Shown: positions 22,935 to 26,557 of the stretch, in pieces | Numbering within the stretch: the first letter of the stretch is position 1 | How the letters are laid out: every line of letters starts with the position of its first letter | Assembly: GCA_965209225.1 (NCBI GenBank) | Contig: OZ242379.1 | Coordinates: 934,762 to 998,761, forward strand | Reading direction: 5' to 3' | Source of the DNA: Thermodesulfobacteriota bacterium | GTDB lineage: Bacteria > Desulfobacterota_D > UBA1144 > Nemesobacterales > Nemesobacteraceae | Length of the DNA stretch: 64,000 nucleotides | Notes under the pieces: generated by a model | The model's input: only the letters and a program-made list of their open reading frames with translations | The model's database searches: none | Told to the model about the DNA's origin: nothing | Translations under genes and position numbers: made by a program

Positions 22935-22942
22935 AAATGTTT
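22935..22942. repeat. left target-site duplication AAATGTTT
   Basis: Identical 8-mer directly abuts both IS termini, same strand. Confidence 0.7.
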
Positions 22943-23019
22943 GGGAATTATGTATTTGACTTGACAAGACATAACACAGGATATAGAATTGTGCCTAATC
23001 CCCTGAAAGGGCGCAATTC

Positions 23020-23388
23020 ATGGACTCTTGGAAGTTTGCTTGCACTGAAACCGCTATTTTCCTCTTCGGAGTTTGGGTAAGTTCTATGTTTCCAGATTTT
23101 TCCCATTGGATTTGGCCTGTTGTAGCCTTAATGCTTTTTCTTTTTGGAATGGGAAAGTTCGACACGCCTACAAATTGGATTTTCCGAAGAGAAAAAAAAC
23201 CTGCTGATGACAATATCCATGCAGAATTAGTTGCTCTTGCGAGAAGAGTTCAGCGAGGCGAAGCTACTTTCGAGCAGGAAAAACGATATCATACAATTCT
23301 TGCACGGCATCCCCTTTATTGGCATGATAACCCTGAAGATTACGAGAAGATAATACAGAAAGCACGTTCATTGGCCAGATTTGCATAA
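23020..23388 (+). CDS. cargo: hypothetical membrane protein
   Basis: Two predicted TM helices, inside IS unit. Confidence 0.4.
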   Translation: MDSWKFACTETAIFLFGVWVSSMFPDFSHWIWPVVALMLFLFGMGKFDTPTNWIFRREKKPADDNIHAELVALARRVQRGEATFEQEKRYHTILARHPLYWHDNPEDYEKIIQKARSLARFA

Positions 23389-23607
23389 TTGTTGATATTG
23401 TTCAGTCGCTTTCTTCGTCTTCGTAAATAGTAATTTCTTCCCCTTCCGGTGGAACCCCCATCAGAACTCGGACTACATCGTCAAACTCCAACTGCGACAT
23501 GTCGGGAATCTGTGGTTCGGTTTCTTTCTTGTCTGGCATTACTGGGCACCCCTAAGCTTTTCAGAATGGGTACAGTCTACCTGATTCCGAAGATTTTTCA
23601 ACGTCAT

Positions 23608-23979
23608 CTAATGTCTCTGCTCTCCCATTATCCCTAACTGTTCTCGGATTTTTCTTTCCTGTTCACTTAACCCTTGTTTCTCCTTCTTTTTCATTCCCAA
23701 TTGCCTTCTGAACTCATCCCCGCTGTCGTCCATAGAGAGAAAAGAACCCATTTTGGAAGCAACGCTTCTTCTTGGTTTTCTTTCGGGCAACTCTATGCCA
23801 TGCTTGATGGCTATTTTCCGTAATATCTCCAGTTCTTCCTCTTGTGCCTCGGCTCTTTTTGCTTCTTGGTGGCTTGAGGCTATCTTAAAGGCTGCATTAG
23901 TCGTAGTGTTGAAAACACCGAGCACAAGCATAAAAAACATAAAAACACCACCAATCAGAATCCATATCAGAAACAACAT
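23608..23979 (-). CDS. cargo: hypothetical membrane-anchored protein
   Basis: N-terminal TM helix then charged coiled region. Confidence 0.4.
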   Translation of the reverse strand: MLFLIWILIGGVFMFFMLVLGVFNTTTNAAFKIASSHQEAKRAEAQEEELEILRKIAIKHGIELPERKPRRSVASKMGSFLSMDDSGDEFRRQLGMKKKEKQGLSEQERKIREQLGIMGEQRH

Positions 23980-23992
23980 TCTTCAAACCTCC

Positions 23993-24142
23993 TTAGTCAT
24001 TCGGGCAATGGCACTCGATTGCGTTCCCTGCTGTGTCCACGACCTTGGTTTCGCAGTTCACGGGGCAATCCTCCAAGTCGAACAGGTCGCAAGCTGCGAC
24101 GAGCAGAAAAAGCAAAACGCACAACCCCCAAACAACTTTCAT
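23993..24142 (-). CDS. cargo: small Cys-rich lipoprotein (about 49 aa; mature peptide about 31 aa with 5 Cys)
   Basis: MKVVWGLCVLLFLLVAAC lipobox signal followed by CPVNC...CHC. Confidence 0.4.
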   Translation of the reverse strand: MKVVWGLCVLLFLLVAACDLFDLEDCPVNCETKVVDTAGNAIECHCPND

Positions 24143-24155
24143 TTTCTCAAGCCCC

Positions 24156-24446
24156 CTAATCGGGTAAGACCCGGTAATCTCCGTACTCATTTATAATCAC
24201 TTCATAGGAATATGTTGAGCGATTACATTTCACCTTGAATCCTGTTTTCCCCCACAGTTTTCGCACTATCGTTACACTGTTGCATGGATAGCCAGATGCG
24301 TGAATAGTGGCAACCAGTGTACCAACATAGCTGGATAAGCCTGAACCGATATACCCATCGGGTTCTATAGTTACGGTCTTTGCGTCCCAGGAAAAGAACA
24401 CAACAGAGGCAACGAAAATGACGCTAAACAGCAGAACCTTCTTCAT
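24156..24446 (-). CDS. cargo: small secreted hypothetical protein
   Basis: N-terminal signal peptide MKKVLLFSVIFVASVVF. Confidence 0.45.
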   Translation of the reverse strand: MKKVLLFSVIFVASVVFFSWDAKTVTIEPDGYIGSGLSSYVGTLVATIHASGYPCNSVTIVRKLWGKTGFKVKCNRSTYSYEVIINEYGDYRVLPD

Positions 24447-24787
24447 GAGTCACCTCCTGTTTTCTTCAGCAGTTCCTTCATCCTGTCGAAATCTGTTACC
24501 AGCCGGGGTTCTCCAGCGAAACAGTCCTTATCGTAAGAAACCATCGTATAAGCGGACTTCTCGCCTATTGACGCAAAGACATACATGTCCTTGGTTTTCG
24601 GGTCGCATCCGATAACTTCAACCTCGTCAAAGTCACCTGCATCCTTTAACTCTTTATAGGCTTCCTCAAGGGCGACCGTCATCGCCCGGCATGAAAGGTG
24701 ACAGATTTCTTCTCCCCGTGCCTGATTGACGGCACAAGCCACCCCCATGACCCCAAACAGGGTCATAAAGACCAACAATGTTCTCAT
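24443..24787 (-). CDS. cargo: small secreted/lipoprotein hypothetical protein with 4 Cys
   Basis: Signal peptide MRTLLVFMTLFGVMGVACA; 4-bp overlap with downstream gene. Confidence 0.45.
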   Translation of the reverse strand: MRTLLVFMTLFGVMGVACAVNQARGEEICHLSCRAMTVALEEAYKELKDAGDFDEVEVIGCDPKTKDMYVFASIGEKSAYTMVSYDKDCFAGEPRLVTDFDRMKELLKKTGGDS

Positions 24788-25052
24788 AGTAATCTCCTAC
24801 GTGTTTGGGGTTAACAGAGGTGGCACGGGGTGCCTCGGCATAAATTGGTGCCGGGTCTTGTCGACACCAGATAGAATCTGAAGTTGCGTGTATTCCCCGA
24901 GACCGGGTCTTGTATTGGACGCAAACCCGGCGGAGCGGGTTCTATCCAGTGTCGACATTCTAACTATATCACACCGAGGAAGGGTAATCTATGAGAATTT
25001 CGTAATCTTGAGAAACGGGTATAATTCCCGCAAGCAAAATTAGGAGGTTGTT

Positions 25053-25298
25053 GTGACGGAAGACCTGCTTAAGGATGTAAAAGGGGATTTTGAAAACATA
25101 GAAGAGGTAGAAAAACACGACGAAAGAGGAAGCGATTTCTTGTTTGTTAAAGATGTACGCTTTAGAAAATCAAAAGACCCAGAAGGCAATACTTTGGTGA
25201 TTTTTGAATTTCAAGGTCTTACGAAGCTTAGGGCCGTAAAAATATCTGCTGAAAATCTCAAACGACTTGAGAAGCAGATTCAGATTTATCGCAGTTGA
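25053..25298 (+). CDS. cargo: hypothetical protein (GTG start, ggagg RBS)
   Basis: 81-aa ORF. Confidence 0.35.
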   Translation: MTEDLLKDVKGDFENIEEVEKHDERGSDFLFVKDVRFRKSKDPEGNTLVIFEFQGLTKLRAVKISAENLKRLEKQIQIYRS

Positions 25299-25503
25299 CG
25301 AAGATGTTTATATCCCAGCCGTTGACATTAAACCACAGTATAGAATCTCTGTAATTTCCGCTTGAAGAGAATCCTTCCTCCGCTATTTTGCCAGCCAAAT
25401 CTCGAAGTTTGACTATCGTTTCCTCAAATTCCCTGATTAACGGCCTTTCATAATCCGAATGGCTATCGGCAGTTTTTTCTACAAGTTCCGGCAATGCTTC
25501 CAT
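25258..25503 (-). CDS. cargo: hypothetical protein
   Basis: 81-aa ORF convergent with previous. Confidence 0.3.
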   Translation of the reverse strand: MEALPELVEKTADSHSDYERPLIREFEETIVKLRDLAGKIAEEGFSSSGNYRDSILWFNVNGWDINIFVNCDKSESASQVV

Positions 25504-25537
25504 TTCCCATCTTACTACTGGGGAAATGGGTAAGTTG

Positions 25538-26476
25538 TCAAGAGATAAGTTCTTTGTAAGTCAGCCTTTTCCCCACAAGTCCGTTTATCGTGGCGTTTAT
25601 CTGGTCCATGGTGTCCATGGGGCGGACATTGTTGCGGTTTGAAAACTCGTCAATGTACTTCTGAAGGTGCTTGACGCTCATCTTGTGGTAAATGCCGTAG
25701 TATCCACGCTTCAGTAATGCCCAAAAGCTTTCTACGCCGTTAGTGTGGGCTTCCCCTTTAACGTATTCTCCGACCGAGTGATGAACCGTTGCGTGTTCAT
25801 ATCCCTTTTCCTTCAGTCCCGAGTAGCTTTTGTAGTCATCGGTAAATATCACGCTTCCCTTTTCCACATGACTGAGGATGATCCAGTGAAGGGTTTGAGC
25901 ATCAGTGCTTTCCACCCGCAGAGCTCTTACCTTTTTGCTTTCCCTATCCTTGATTCCCACAACCGGAGTTTTGCCTACAGCGCCACGTCCCTTTTTGAGC
26001 TTCTTTTTCTCGTGCTTGTTCTTTTCCAGTCCTCCGAGGTAAGCCTCGTCAACCTCTACGATCCTTCCGAAAAGACGGGAAGCGTTGTTGGCCCAGCCCT
26101 GGCGGATTCTGTGAGCAAGGAACCACGCTGACCTCTGCTGTATTCCGAGATCGTTTCCGAGCTTGGTACTGGATACACCCTTTAAGGAAGTGGACATAAG
26201 GTAGATAGCCATCAACCATTTCCGGTAGGAGAGGGGGCTTTCTTCCATTAAAGTTCCGGTCTTGGCACTGAAATACTTGCGGCAGGGCTTGCACCAGTAA
26301 GGCATTTCCTTGTGGCTTGCTTCCCTGGTTTCTTCGGAACCGCAACGAGGGCAGCTCCTTCCGTCCGCCCATCTCATTTTCTCAAAATGCTTCCTGGCTT
26401 TCTCTTCCGTGTTGAAGAGTTCCATAAAGTCATAAAAACTGATTCTTTCTCTTGCTGACTTGGGTTTCTGTCCCAT
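25538..26476 (-). CDS. IS1595-family transposase (N-terminal zinc ribbon + ISXO2-like DDE domain)
   Basis: CPRCGSEET...CKPCRKYF zinc ribbon; DDE region with HTNGVESFWALLKRG. Confidence 0.9.
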   Translation of the reverse strand: MGQKPKSARERISFYDFMELFNTEEKARKHFEKMRWADGRSCPRCGSEETREASHKEMPYWCKPCRKYFSAKTGTLMEESPLSYRKWLMAIYLMSTSLKGVSSTKLGNDLGIQQRSAWFLAHRIRQGWANNASRLFGRIVEVDEAYLGGLEKNKHEKKKLKKGRGAVGKTPVVGIKDRESKKVRALRVESTDAQTLHWIILSHVEKGSVIFTDDYKSYSGLKEKGYEHATVHHSVGEYVKGEAHTNGVESFWALLKRGYYGIYHKMSVKHLQKYIDEFSNRNNVRPMDTMDQINATINGLVGKRLTYKELIS

Positions 26477-26549
26477 TGAACTGACCTCCTTAACTGTGTA
26501 AAATTCTACACGATTTAAAAAGGTTTGTCAAGTCAAATACATAATTCCC

Positions 26550-26557
26550 AAATGTTT
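26550..26557. repeat. right target-site duplication AAATGTTT
   Basis: Identical to 22935-22942; 8-bp TSD is the size expected for the IS1595 family. Confidence 0.7.

Follow-up and report, generated by a model that had tools for sequence, protein, structure and literature searches.

Why does an insertion sequence (IS) in a Thermodesulfobacteriota genome carry a row of genes for small cysteine-rich exported proteins, how is this row moved and expressed, and what might its products do? We analysed a window of 64,000 nucleotides from contig OZ242379.1 (assembly GCA_965209225.1, positions 934,762 to 998,761 of the forward strand), part of what is probably the genome of a sponge symbiont. A first-pass annotation of this window had noted four consecutive minus-strand open reading frames (ORFs) within an IS1595-type unit and had suggested that they form a horizontally mobile module of a toxin/bacteriocin-like or surface-modifying kind. 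Our results show that these ORFs are the load of a complete IS1595-family element, and they point to an operon of exported proteins that lies behind a candidate promoter and a covarying leader RNA and recurs on other IS1595 backbones; they do not support a toxin.

A complete IS1595-family element

The ends and the transposase gene of the element are as follows (positions are those of the window).

22943-26549: IS1595-family unit of 3607 bp, bounded by perfect 25-nt inverted repeats (IRs) and an 8-bp target-site duplication (TSD)
22935-22942, no strand: left TSD copy, AAATGTTT; the same 8-mer abuts both IRs on the outside
26550-26557, no strand: right TSD copy, AAATGTTT, partner of the left 8-mer
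22943-22967, plus strand: left terminal IR, GGGAATTATGTATTTGACTTGACAA, 25/25 identical to the right IR
26525-26549, minus strand: right terminal IR, carrying an inward promoter (26531-26503) for the transposase gene
25538-26476, minus strand: IS1595-family transposase, 312 amino acids (aa), with Pfam DDE and zinc-ribbon matches
22961-22989, plus strand: left inward promoter-like site, aimed at gene c122, with its -35 hexamer within the left IR
26531-26503, minus strand: right inward promoter-like site, aimed at the transposase gene

The chance expectation for a 25-nt IR match is 0, and perfect IRs combined with an 8-bp duplication indicate that the unit transposed as one piece. The transposase matched DDE_Tnp_IS1595 (PF12762) at 1.7e-43 (148.7 bits against a cut-off of 27) and, at its N-terminus, Zn_ribbon_IS1595 (PF12760) at 3.2e-9, so that the IS1595 unit proposed by the first-pass annotation is borne out by its repeats, its TSD and its transposase. 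The element termini start with GGGAATTAT, and a promoter-like TTGACA-17-TAGAAT faces inward at each IR (11/12 in a promoter scan). The chromosomal flanks are ordinary, with genes for a class-V aminotransferase, a DUF1828 protein, RF2 and NAD kinase.

IS1595-family copies with passenger genes are described as transporter ISs in the part of PMC3129680 that cites Siguier, Gagnevin & Chandler 2009. The unit in the window resembles them in its zinc-ribbon DDE_Tnp_IS1595 transposase, the start of its IRs, its 8-bp TSD, and the position of its passengers between the transposase gene and the far IR; it differs in that the passengers form a predicted exported-protein operon with its own promoter and RNA leader, and in having a conserved small acidic ORF near the far end. 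The ends also fit GGnnATTAT, the terminal pattern of the ISNwi1 subgroup, a likeness rather than a placement in that subgroup.

A compact operon of small, predicted exported proteins

About 2.5 kb of cargo separates the transposase gene from the left IR. Read along the minus strand, the order is transposase, c81m, c81p (plus strand), a 265-nt spacer, c114, c96, lipo49, c123, c45, c122 (plus strand) and the left IR. The first four genes after the spacer are:

24443-24787, minus strand: c114, 114 aa, acidic, four invariant Cys, first gene of the operon; signal peptide MRTLLVFMTLFGVMGVACA followed by VNQ
24156-24446, minus strand: c96, 96 aa, two conserved Cys; signal peptide or signal anchor MKKVLLFSVIFVASVVFFS followed by WDA
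23993-24142, minus strand: lipo49, 49-aa lipoprotein precursor, MKVVWGLCVLLFLLVAA followed by C; lipobox LVAA before the C
23608-23979, minus strand: c123, N-terminal membrane anchor and charged tail; Shine-Dalgarno (SD) sequence AAGGAGGT

All four start with a predicted signal peptide or transmembrane anchor, as previously annotated, and the description of the cargo as small secreted or lipoprotein Cys-rich peptides and membrane proteins agrees with our reading of the sequences. For c114, we predict a classical signal peptide cleaved between ACA and V; the N-terminus of c96 is MKK followed by a hydrophobic stretch. An ATGA overlap joins c114 and c96, and SD sequences of the AGGAG/AGGAGG type lie 5-8 nt ahead of c114, c96, c123 and c81p. 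The mechanically called ORF of lipo49 spans 23993-24190 (65 aa), but its true start is most likely the Met at 24142, because this codon lies 13 nt past the c96 stop and has a GGGGG resembling a ribosome-binding site (RBS) 11 nt upstream. With this start, the precursor has the length of about 49 aa and the five cysteines attributed to it earlier, whereas the mature part, CDLFDLEDCPVNCETKVVDTAGNAIECHCPND, has 32 residues instead of 31. Mature lipo49 follows the pattern C-x7-C-x3-C-x13-C-H-C-P-N, with spacers that vary slightly among homologues, and has an isoelectric point (pI) of 4.05 and a net charge of -7. Its precursor, M-K-VVWGLCVLLFLL-VAA-C, appears to have the charged n-region and h-region of a lipoprotein signal and fits the Lgt/LspA rule [LVI][ASTVI][GAS]C. 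In c123, positive charges follow the membrane helix, and the tail is therefore predicted to be, and probably is, cytoplasmic.

Database relatives were found for c114 (n = 8, 64-100% identity) and c96 (n = 10, 66-93% identity). Look-ups of the exact sequences of c114, P0001 and the transposase had no match on record. Homologues of lipo49 were found by tblastn in fetched loci (given here by our own L numbers), as a word-indexed search returned identical sequences only, and c123 homologues occur in L084 (56%), L081 (34%) and L100. Within the c114 and c96 families the signal peptide is variable, while there is little or no change in the mature part or at any Cys; in five lipo49 homologues the lipobox and all five Cys are invariant and the h-region is kept. 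Pairwise ratios of nonsynonymous to synonymous substitution (dN/dS) against homologues were 0.16-0.23 for c114, 0.07-0.14 for c96, 0.18-0.43 for lipo49 and 0.34 for c123. On the basis of the strong SD sequences, the ATGA overlap, the conservation of cysteines and mature parts, and dN/dS values of 0.07-0.43, we judge c114-c96-lipo49-c123 to be a compact operon of real genes under purifying selection.

The same cassette on different IS1595 backbones

Apart from the window, homologues of c114, c96 and lipo49 (64-93% identity) were traced to seven distinct contexts. Four of these (L080, L081, L082 and L084) have the cassette within an IR-bounded IS1595 unit, and perfect 8-bp duplications flank the L080, L081 and L084 units. 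The unit ends are unlike those in the window (GGGAATTATATACAATAGTGCCG in L080 and L081, GGGAATTATATCGAAAAGTCAC in L084, CGTAATTATATACTTGACAAAG in L082), and identity to the window is 38-51% for the transposases of L080, L081 and L082, compared to 64-82% for the cargo proteins. Gene order in L081 and L084 is c114-c96-lipo49-c123-like, as in the window. L082 has c114-lipo49 and then three other signal-peptide proteins, with a c122 homologue at the end. The L080 cassette opens with a gene for a Cys-rich signal-peptide protein; lipo49 and a c114-like gene come next, followed by the gene for a 311-aa lipoprotein that carries the metzincin motif HELMHVLGFWGH. L092-L099 are one element recovered from many samples. 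These comparisons show that at least four different IS1595 backbones carry this cassette, which bears out the horizontal mobility proposed earlier; with four contexts inside IS units, three of them with 8-bp duplications, the homologues are not just housekeeping envelope proteins unlinked to ISs. L095, L111 and L174 come from the Aplysina aerophoba sponge metagenome MKWU (PMC5649159).

Homology with L081-L084 begins abruptly at 25046-25052, and a short motif lies at the upstream edge of the conserved block:

25020-25029, minus strand: internal IR-like motif GGGAATTATA, equal to the first 9-10 nt of the IS ends

The motif is also seen in L080-L084 (alignment A3, columns 35-50), reading GGGGATTGTACCC in the other loci and oriented as the transposase-proximal IR. 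Speculatively, the motif is what remains of an IS end. The cassette may be, or may derive from, an IR-bounded element without a transposase, which could account for its occurrence on different IS backbones.

We also observed genes of defence and counter-defence (Acb3-like, Fic, McrBC, AbiEii, SocA/Panacea, and a cyclic-oligonucleotide-based antiphage signalling system (CBASS) with HORMA/TRIP13) around L081 1029-1745, in the L082 flanks, in L080 1-2192, and in L090 810-4834, which holds a remote c96 relative. The surroundings of cassette-bearing units look like variable islands.

A promoter and a covarying leader RNA ahead of the operon

The 265-nt spacer ahead of c114 shows 77-79% nucleotide conservation, the same as the coding sequence, and contains the following candidate elements.

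24963-25014, minus strand: cassette promoter region, with direct repeats and an extended -10, as read from the sequence
25014-25002 and 24997-24984, minus strand: direct repeats TTCTCAAGATTAC and TTCTCATAGATTAC, consensus TTCTCA(A/T)AGATTAC, of putative function
24971-24963, minus strand: extended -10 TGATATAGT, within the near-invariant TGTGATATAGT
24834-24958, minus strand: predicted structured 5' leader RNA of ~125 nt, between the extended -10 promoter and c114

TGTGATATAGT is nearly invariant across 7 aligned loci, and transcription would start at about 24957, at the foot of the outer helix of the leader. The leader, which the first-pass annotation overlooked, was folded by RNAalifold into a 17-bp outer helix around two hairpins, followed by two 3' hairpins; the hairpin loops AAUACAA and GGGGAAUA are conserved. 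The window leader folds at -62.6 kcal/mol (z = -4.7).

A seven-locus alignment showed many compensatory changes, and we built a covariance model (R1) from six sequences. The window leader scored 139.9 bits against R1, and outside the training set the model matched L075 (108 bits), L076 (103), L014 (79), L100 (76) and L013 (35); it also found two copies in L174 and one in L179. In an 11-sequence alignment, which was fitted to R1 and so favours the structure, 95.6% of cells were paired, compared to 33-46% with slid partners. Changes on both sides occurred in 23/35 pairs overall and in 15/17 outer-helix pairs, values reached by no shuffle, and helices 3 and 4 were 94-97% paired with compensatory changes. 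The conclusion of covariation is robust because the outer helix has an essentially different sequence at each locus, and the G-U pairs restrict the fold to the sense strand. The alignments show a covarying leader RNA, and its instances are tied to genes for predicted exported proteins.

Other helices were also considered. When a single sequence is folded by itself, CCU forms a short helix with the beginning of the SD sequence, tentatively supported by one compensatory change in L092. We considered the leader palindrome as an integron attC-like DNA site and rejected this idea, given that the core is more conserved than the stem, the G-U pairs are specific to the sense strand, and there is no integrase nearby. 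A degenerate DNA pattern for the leader core gave at least 120 matches in metagenomes. Among the 80 loci listed for this pattern, R1 identified a leader in only four, at least two of which (L111, L174) are from the A. aerophoba sponge metagenome, and 20 of the other loci gave no Rfam Xcc1 match, indicating that most matches of the pattern arise by chance.

The closest described RNA is sRNA-Xcc1 (Rfam RF02221), which has so far been discussed as a trans-acting small RNA (sRNA) of Xanthomonas. It occurs on integrons, transposons and plasmids, and has been found ahead of symE in Xanthomonas integron cassettes (10.1101/2025.06.18.660453), ahead of an ORF6N gene in APSE phage (10.1101/2020.03.17.996009), and as five tandem copies ~385 nt apart in a Xylella genomic island (PMC12189769). 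RF02221 matched the window at 24842-24931 on the minus strand with 35.8 bits (E = 9e-4) and L075 with 39.7 bits, both below the gathering score of 53. The likeness lies in a central hairpin (AAUACAA...CCC/GGG...GAAUA) aligned with high posterior probability, in a potential GCCGGG/CCCGGC helix, and in a location on mobile DNA just upstream of a gene and in the same sense. Apart from the low scores, the window leader differs in three respects. Where Xcc1 has its third local hairpin, the leader has the 3' strand of the 17-bp helix, the 5' strand of which lies upstream of the Rfam model; it has an extra 3' hairpin; and its downstream genes encode exported proteins and not SymE or ORF6N. The helix equivalent to Xcc1 P1 (GgCcGGg / CcCCgGcC) is pairable in 93% of cells, but its columns are near-invariant and its covariation does not exceed that of shuffles; it competes with consensus helices 2 and 5 and would form a pseudoknot with the 17-bp helix. 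We infer that the sRNA-Xcc1 family may be a general leader of mobile cassettes.

Genes behind the leader in other loci

In every case examined, the next gene after the leader encodes a predicted exported protein. The leader precedes c114 operons in the window, L081, L082, L084 and L092; c96 operons in L014 (a metagenome-assembled genome (MAG) of Cyclobacteriaceae) and L100; a Cys-rich signal-peptide protein in L080; and lipoproteins in L075 and in L013 (a MAG of the acidobacteriotal 'Ca. Multivorans'). Lipoproteins with an HExxHxxGxxH motif follow it in L076 (HEIMHVLGFSGH) and behind the first copy in L174 (HELIHALGFSH). Behind the second L174 copy lie a signal-peptide ankyrin protein with a C-terminal membrane segment (Pfam Ank, 9e-9) and then a lipo49 homologue.

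This ankyrin cassette (L174 2186-3203, MKWU01005299) lies just outside the end of an IS1595 unit whose IR ends at 1760. The metzincin-motif lipoproteins, of ~290-330 aa, are encoded at L080 6336-7271, L076 6737-7717 (minus strand) and L174 548-1420; two gave sub-threshold astacin matches, that of L076 gave no Pfam match, and they form an unannotated family. Just upstream of the leader in L014, at 3463-3561 on the minus strand, is a tRNA gene (51.8 bits) with a 28-nt insertion near the anticodon loop, which may be an intron-bearing tRNA or an insertion target.

Predicted folds and family searches

None of the eight cargo ORFs scored above threshold in searches of Pfam, PHROGs, PADLOC and NCBIfam, and the sole weak signal was for c96 against phrog_33858, to which no function is assigned (1.3e-4). 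An IMG/VR scan for c114 relatives returned none and therefore gave no evidence of phage carriage. The AlphaFold model of c114 has a core (residues 31-80) with a predicted local distance difference test (pLDDT) score of 83-88, comprising one helix, three strands and a C-terminal helix, in an alpha+beta arrangement that resembles cystatin, NTF2 and VirB8. For c96, pLDDT was 74-83 and the order b1-helix-b2-b5 is cystatin-like, from a shallow alignment. It is plausible from these models that c114 and c96 are small cystatin/NTF2-like domains of the sort found in periplasmic binding, inhibitor and immunity proteins. By sequence reading, the inhibitory QxVxG loop of cystatins is absent from c96, c114 and their alignments, and the c96 model had no Foldseek match among viral structures at E <= 1e-3.

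A c96 profile searched against 1.84 billion representatives identified 81 clusters (relatives P0019-P0098). These remote relatives are mostly stand-alone proteins of ~95-105 aa with signal peptides and two conserved Cys, and share the motif IExDA...R..GYxCDSVS...GF.v.CN..Y.YE..D.GG.W; we also observed the domain at the C-terminus of some membrane-anchored proteins of 160-270 aa. None of the ten relatives tested belongs to a Pfam family, and three remote contexts, which were variable regions of genes without known function, or a CBASS/integrase island, gave no functional clue. The c96 family is probably a rare but widespread periplasmic domain. Overall, these features would fit small disulfide-stabilised binding domains of the cell envelope, although they identify no ligand.

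The IS lineage and the remaining genes of the unit

The remaining genes of the unit are listed here.

23402-23539, minus strand: c45, 45 aa, very acidic (net charge -12.5), IS backbone gene
23020-23388, plus strand: c122, 122 aa, two predicted membrane helices and a helical cytoplasmic tail, directed inward from the left IR promoter
25053-25298, plus strand: c81p, 81 aa, putative; divergent from the cassette promoter, with a strong AGGAGGT SD sequence
25258-25503, minus strand: c81m, 81 aa, acidic, putative; downstream of the transposase gene, overlapping the 3' end of c81p, with a weak RBS

The closest transposases (91%, 79% and 71% identical) are in Ca. Dadabacteria MAGs, and the remaining relatives, at 45-55% identity, are in Dehalococcoidia, Rhodothermales, Bryobacterales and other MAGs; isolate names suggest that these MAGs come from sponge microbiome projects. 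Related units typically measure 2.3-8.7 kb where IRs were found, most resolved units hold cargo, and 8-bp duplications are also present at L001, L004, L075, L080, L081 and L084. In a crude ORF survey of 33 related units, many carried DNA methyltransferase/restriction-like cargo and several carried genes for signal-peptide proteins, lipoproteins or membrane proteins. L001, L003 and L004 are sister units whose IRs match those in the window exactly or almost so, and their loads differ widely from that of the window: small membrane proteins in L001, a pair of genes for 286-aa and 382-aa proteins in L003 that reads as restriction-modification-like, and a 749-aa protein and others in L004.

The only gene besides the transposase gene that the window shares with its closest units is c45 (82% identity in L001, 70% in L004 and 36% in L003), and a similar ORF of 45-90 aa ends most of the 33 related units. 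We considered c45 as cargo and dropped this assignment, a point missed in the first-pass annotation, since it occurs in sister units with wholly different cargo; being common to these units whatever their load, it belongs with the IS backbone. Examples of such ORFs, usually acidic and just inside the transposase-distal IR, are L001 10205-10345, L003 11036-11176, L004 13071-13217, L081 7253-7447, L080 7723-7914 and L174 1530-1724. The end-proximal small ORF seems to be an accessory gene of the IS backbone that has so far gone unnoticed, and we know of no earlier description of an acidic end-proximal ORF in the IS1595 lineage.

The N-terminal 60 aa of c122 are 39-40% identical to those of the equivalent end-proximal, opposite-strand gene of L082, and c122 gave no family match; as a membrane-protein gene near the IS end, it may be transcribed from the IS terminus itself. 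No homologues of c81p or c81m were found, and c81m likewise had no family match. The slot of c81p holds unrelated small genes in other units (a DUF2513 gene in L081, an 84-aa gene in L082 and a 70-aa gene in L174), and c81p may be a regulator.

Methyltransferase-like genes with DPPFN/DPPY motifs, with or without a second gene, were observed in L003 (9017-11022), L005, L006, L007, L016, L025, L033, L048, L051, L053, L066 and L067, sister units from MAGs that look sponge-derived by their isolate names. It may be common for transporter ISs of this lineage to carry methyltransferase or restriction-modification genes.

What the cassette may do

We tentatively favour, at somewhat less than even confidence, the view that the cassette is a mobile, leader-controlled accessory module of non-enzymatic proteins of the envelope or host interface; a surface-modifying role, one of the two functions first proposed, is plausible on the modelled folds. 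In the mechanism we envisage, the transporter IS moves as one 3.6-kb unit, and once inserted the cassette would be transcribed from its own promoter, with the two TTCTCA(A/T)AGATTAC repeats as sites at which the divergent c81p may control it. On the mRNA, the Xcc1-like leader would act in cis, and the short helix could pair with the start of the SD sequence. The c114 and c96 proteins would be exported by Sec, form disulfides and fold into small cystatin/NTF2-like binding domains; lipo49 would be lipidated at Cys18, leaving a 32-residue acidic peptide, probably a hairpin with two disulfides, anchored on a membrane face; and c123 would anchor a charged tail on the cytoplasmic side. Together these proteins would bind or shield something, not kill, and the cassette would be a niche-adaptation module exchanged among sponge-associated bacteria.

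Several observations weigh against this accessory-module view. No cargo protein has a function known from homology or experiment, and export of the cargo proteins and expression of the operon are predictions, the former by sequence reading. The AlphaFold2 alignments were shallow (8 and 11 sequences) and mean pLDDT was 66-70. The methyltransferase/restriction-like cargo of many sister units points more to defence than to host interaction, the cassettes of L092-L099 and L100 have no transposase within their short contigs, and the sponge link rests on samples that happened to be fetched.

A possible, though on balance unlikely, alternative is an orphan immunity or exclusion cassette, in which the exported domains and the lipopeptide would guard the envelope against periplasm-acting toxins of competitors or block phage receptors, in the manner of the superinfection-exclusion lipoproteins of prophages, and the IS would spread this protection. 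The predicted folds and the defence flavour of the sister cargo fit such a role, but the fold similarity is generic, PADLOC and Pfam gave no immunity match, no toxin gene lies beside any homologue in about nine contexts examined, and among the other proteins made behind the same leader are an ankyrin-repeat protein and metzincin-motif lipoproteins, none of which resembles an immunity protein. Two known systems are relevant here. In Bacteroidales, Ross et al. (2019) reportedly described mobile elements with clusters of acquired interbacterial defence (orphan immunity) genes. Like the cassette, these clusters are mobile arrays of small genes, mostly with a signal peptide or lipobox and with content shuffled between strains; they differ in having tyrosine recombinases and immunity families of the type VI secretion system, compared to an IS1595 transposase and no immunity match here. 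T5 Llp, Cor and TrbK are small exclusion lipoproteins encoded by prophages or plasmids, and lipo49 resembles them in being very small, Cys-containing and located on a mobile element, but it has no sequence similarity to them, always travels with c114 and, given no match in IMG/VR, does not look phage-borne.

A broader reading, which we regard as doubtful, is that leaders and exported genes form an undescribed class of mobile 'secretome cassettes', in which an Xcc1-derived sensor RNA, either riboswitch-like or protein-binding, would switch on host-interface effectors (disulfide domains, a lipopeptide, metzincin-like lipoproteins and ankyrin proteins), and IS1595 elements, perhaps including transposase-less IR-bounded derivatives, would shuttle them across phyla. 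Exported ankyrin-repeat proteins of the 'eukaryotic-like' kind were reportedly described by Jahn et al. (2019) from sponge symbionts and the phages of these bacteria. A further reference on such proteins is PMC8163846. The habitat is the same, and in L174 the leader precedes a signal-peptide ankyrin protein and a lipo49 homologue, but the window cargo has no ankyrin or other eukaryotic-like repeats. If this broader reading were true, secretome cassettes would be a horizontally traded toolkit for life inside an animal host, used by Thermodesulfobacteriota/Dadabacteria, Bacteroidota and Acidobacteriota and found at least partly in sponge microbiomes.

We consider it improbable that the cassette serves protease control, with c114 and c96 as cystatin/PepSY-like inhibitors of, or chaperones for, the metzincin-type lipoproteins of sister cassettes. 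The cystatin-like fold and the metzincin-like lipoproteins behind the same leader in sister cassettes agree with this idea, but the unit in the window has no protease.

Very improbable, in our assessment, is the toxin or bacteriocin of the first-pass annotation, in which the Cys-rich peptide would be a secreted, disulfide-rich antimicrobial and the membrane proteins would confer immunity. The mature peptide is small, its four free Cys in a CxxxC...CxC arrangement recall beta-hairpin peptides, and c123 and c122, which adjoin lipo49, could in principle be immunity factors. However, the conserved lipobox predicts a product anchored to the membrane and not released; a net charge of -7 and a pI of 4.05 are unlike those of cationic disulfide peptides; the unit has no ATP-binding cassette (ABC) exporter, leader protease, modification or other maturation enzyme, or recognised immunity gene; no toxin, bacteriocin, PHROG or other family match was found; and the lipo49 dN/dS values carry no arms-race signature. 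The toxin idea is not supported and should be dropped unless an activity test says otherwise.

Least credible of all is that the ORFs are hitch-hiking DNA, non-functional or selfishly kept filler between the IS ends: the cargo has no known function and c81p and c81m lack homologues, but the four operon genes are under purifying selection with all Cys conserved, the promoter is conserved, the leader covaries, and the cassette is retained on different IS backbones.

Significance

The IS1595 transporter vehicle and the RNA family are already known, and nothing here breaks known principles. Three things are new: an Xcc1-like leader, an exported-protein operon and an IS1595 vehicle are combined; this combination recurs in sponge-associated bacteria of different phyla; and a conserved ORF lies near the end of the IS. 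Should the function prove to be ordinary upkeep of the envelope, what is left is a well-documented case of an IS with cargo. At least three unannotated protein families (c114, c96 and lipo49) are defined by this work, and their sizes suit direct structural and binding studies.

Sponge symbionts have abundant transposases and exported 'eukaryotic-like' proteins, and to our knowledge the spread of host-interface genes between unrelated symbionts is poorly documented. This locus offers a concrete vehicle, in which intact IS1595 transporter elements carry interchangeable operons of predicted exported proteins that share a promoter and a leader, and it extends the sRNA-Xcc1 class by a clearly cis-located leader variant in other phyla.

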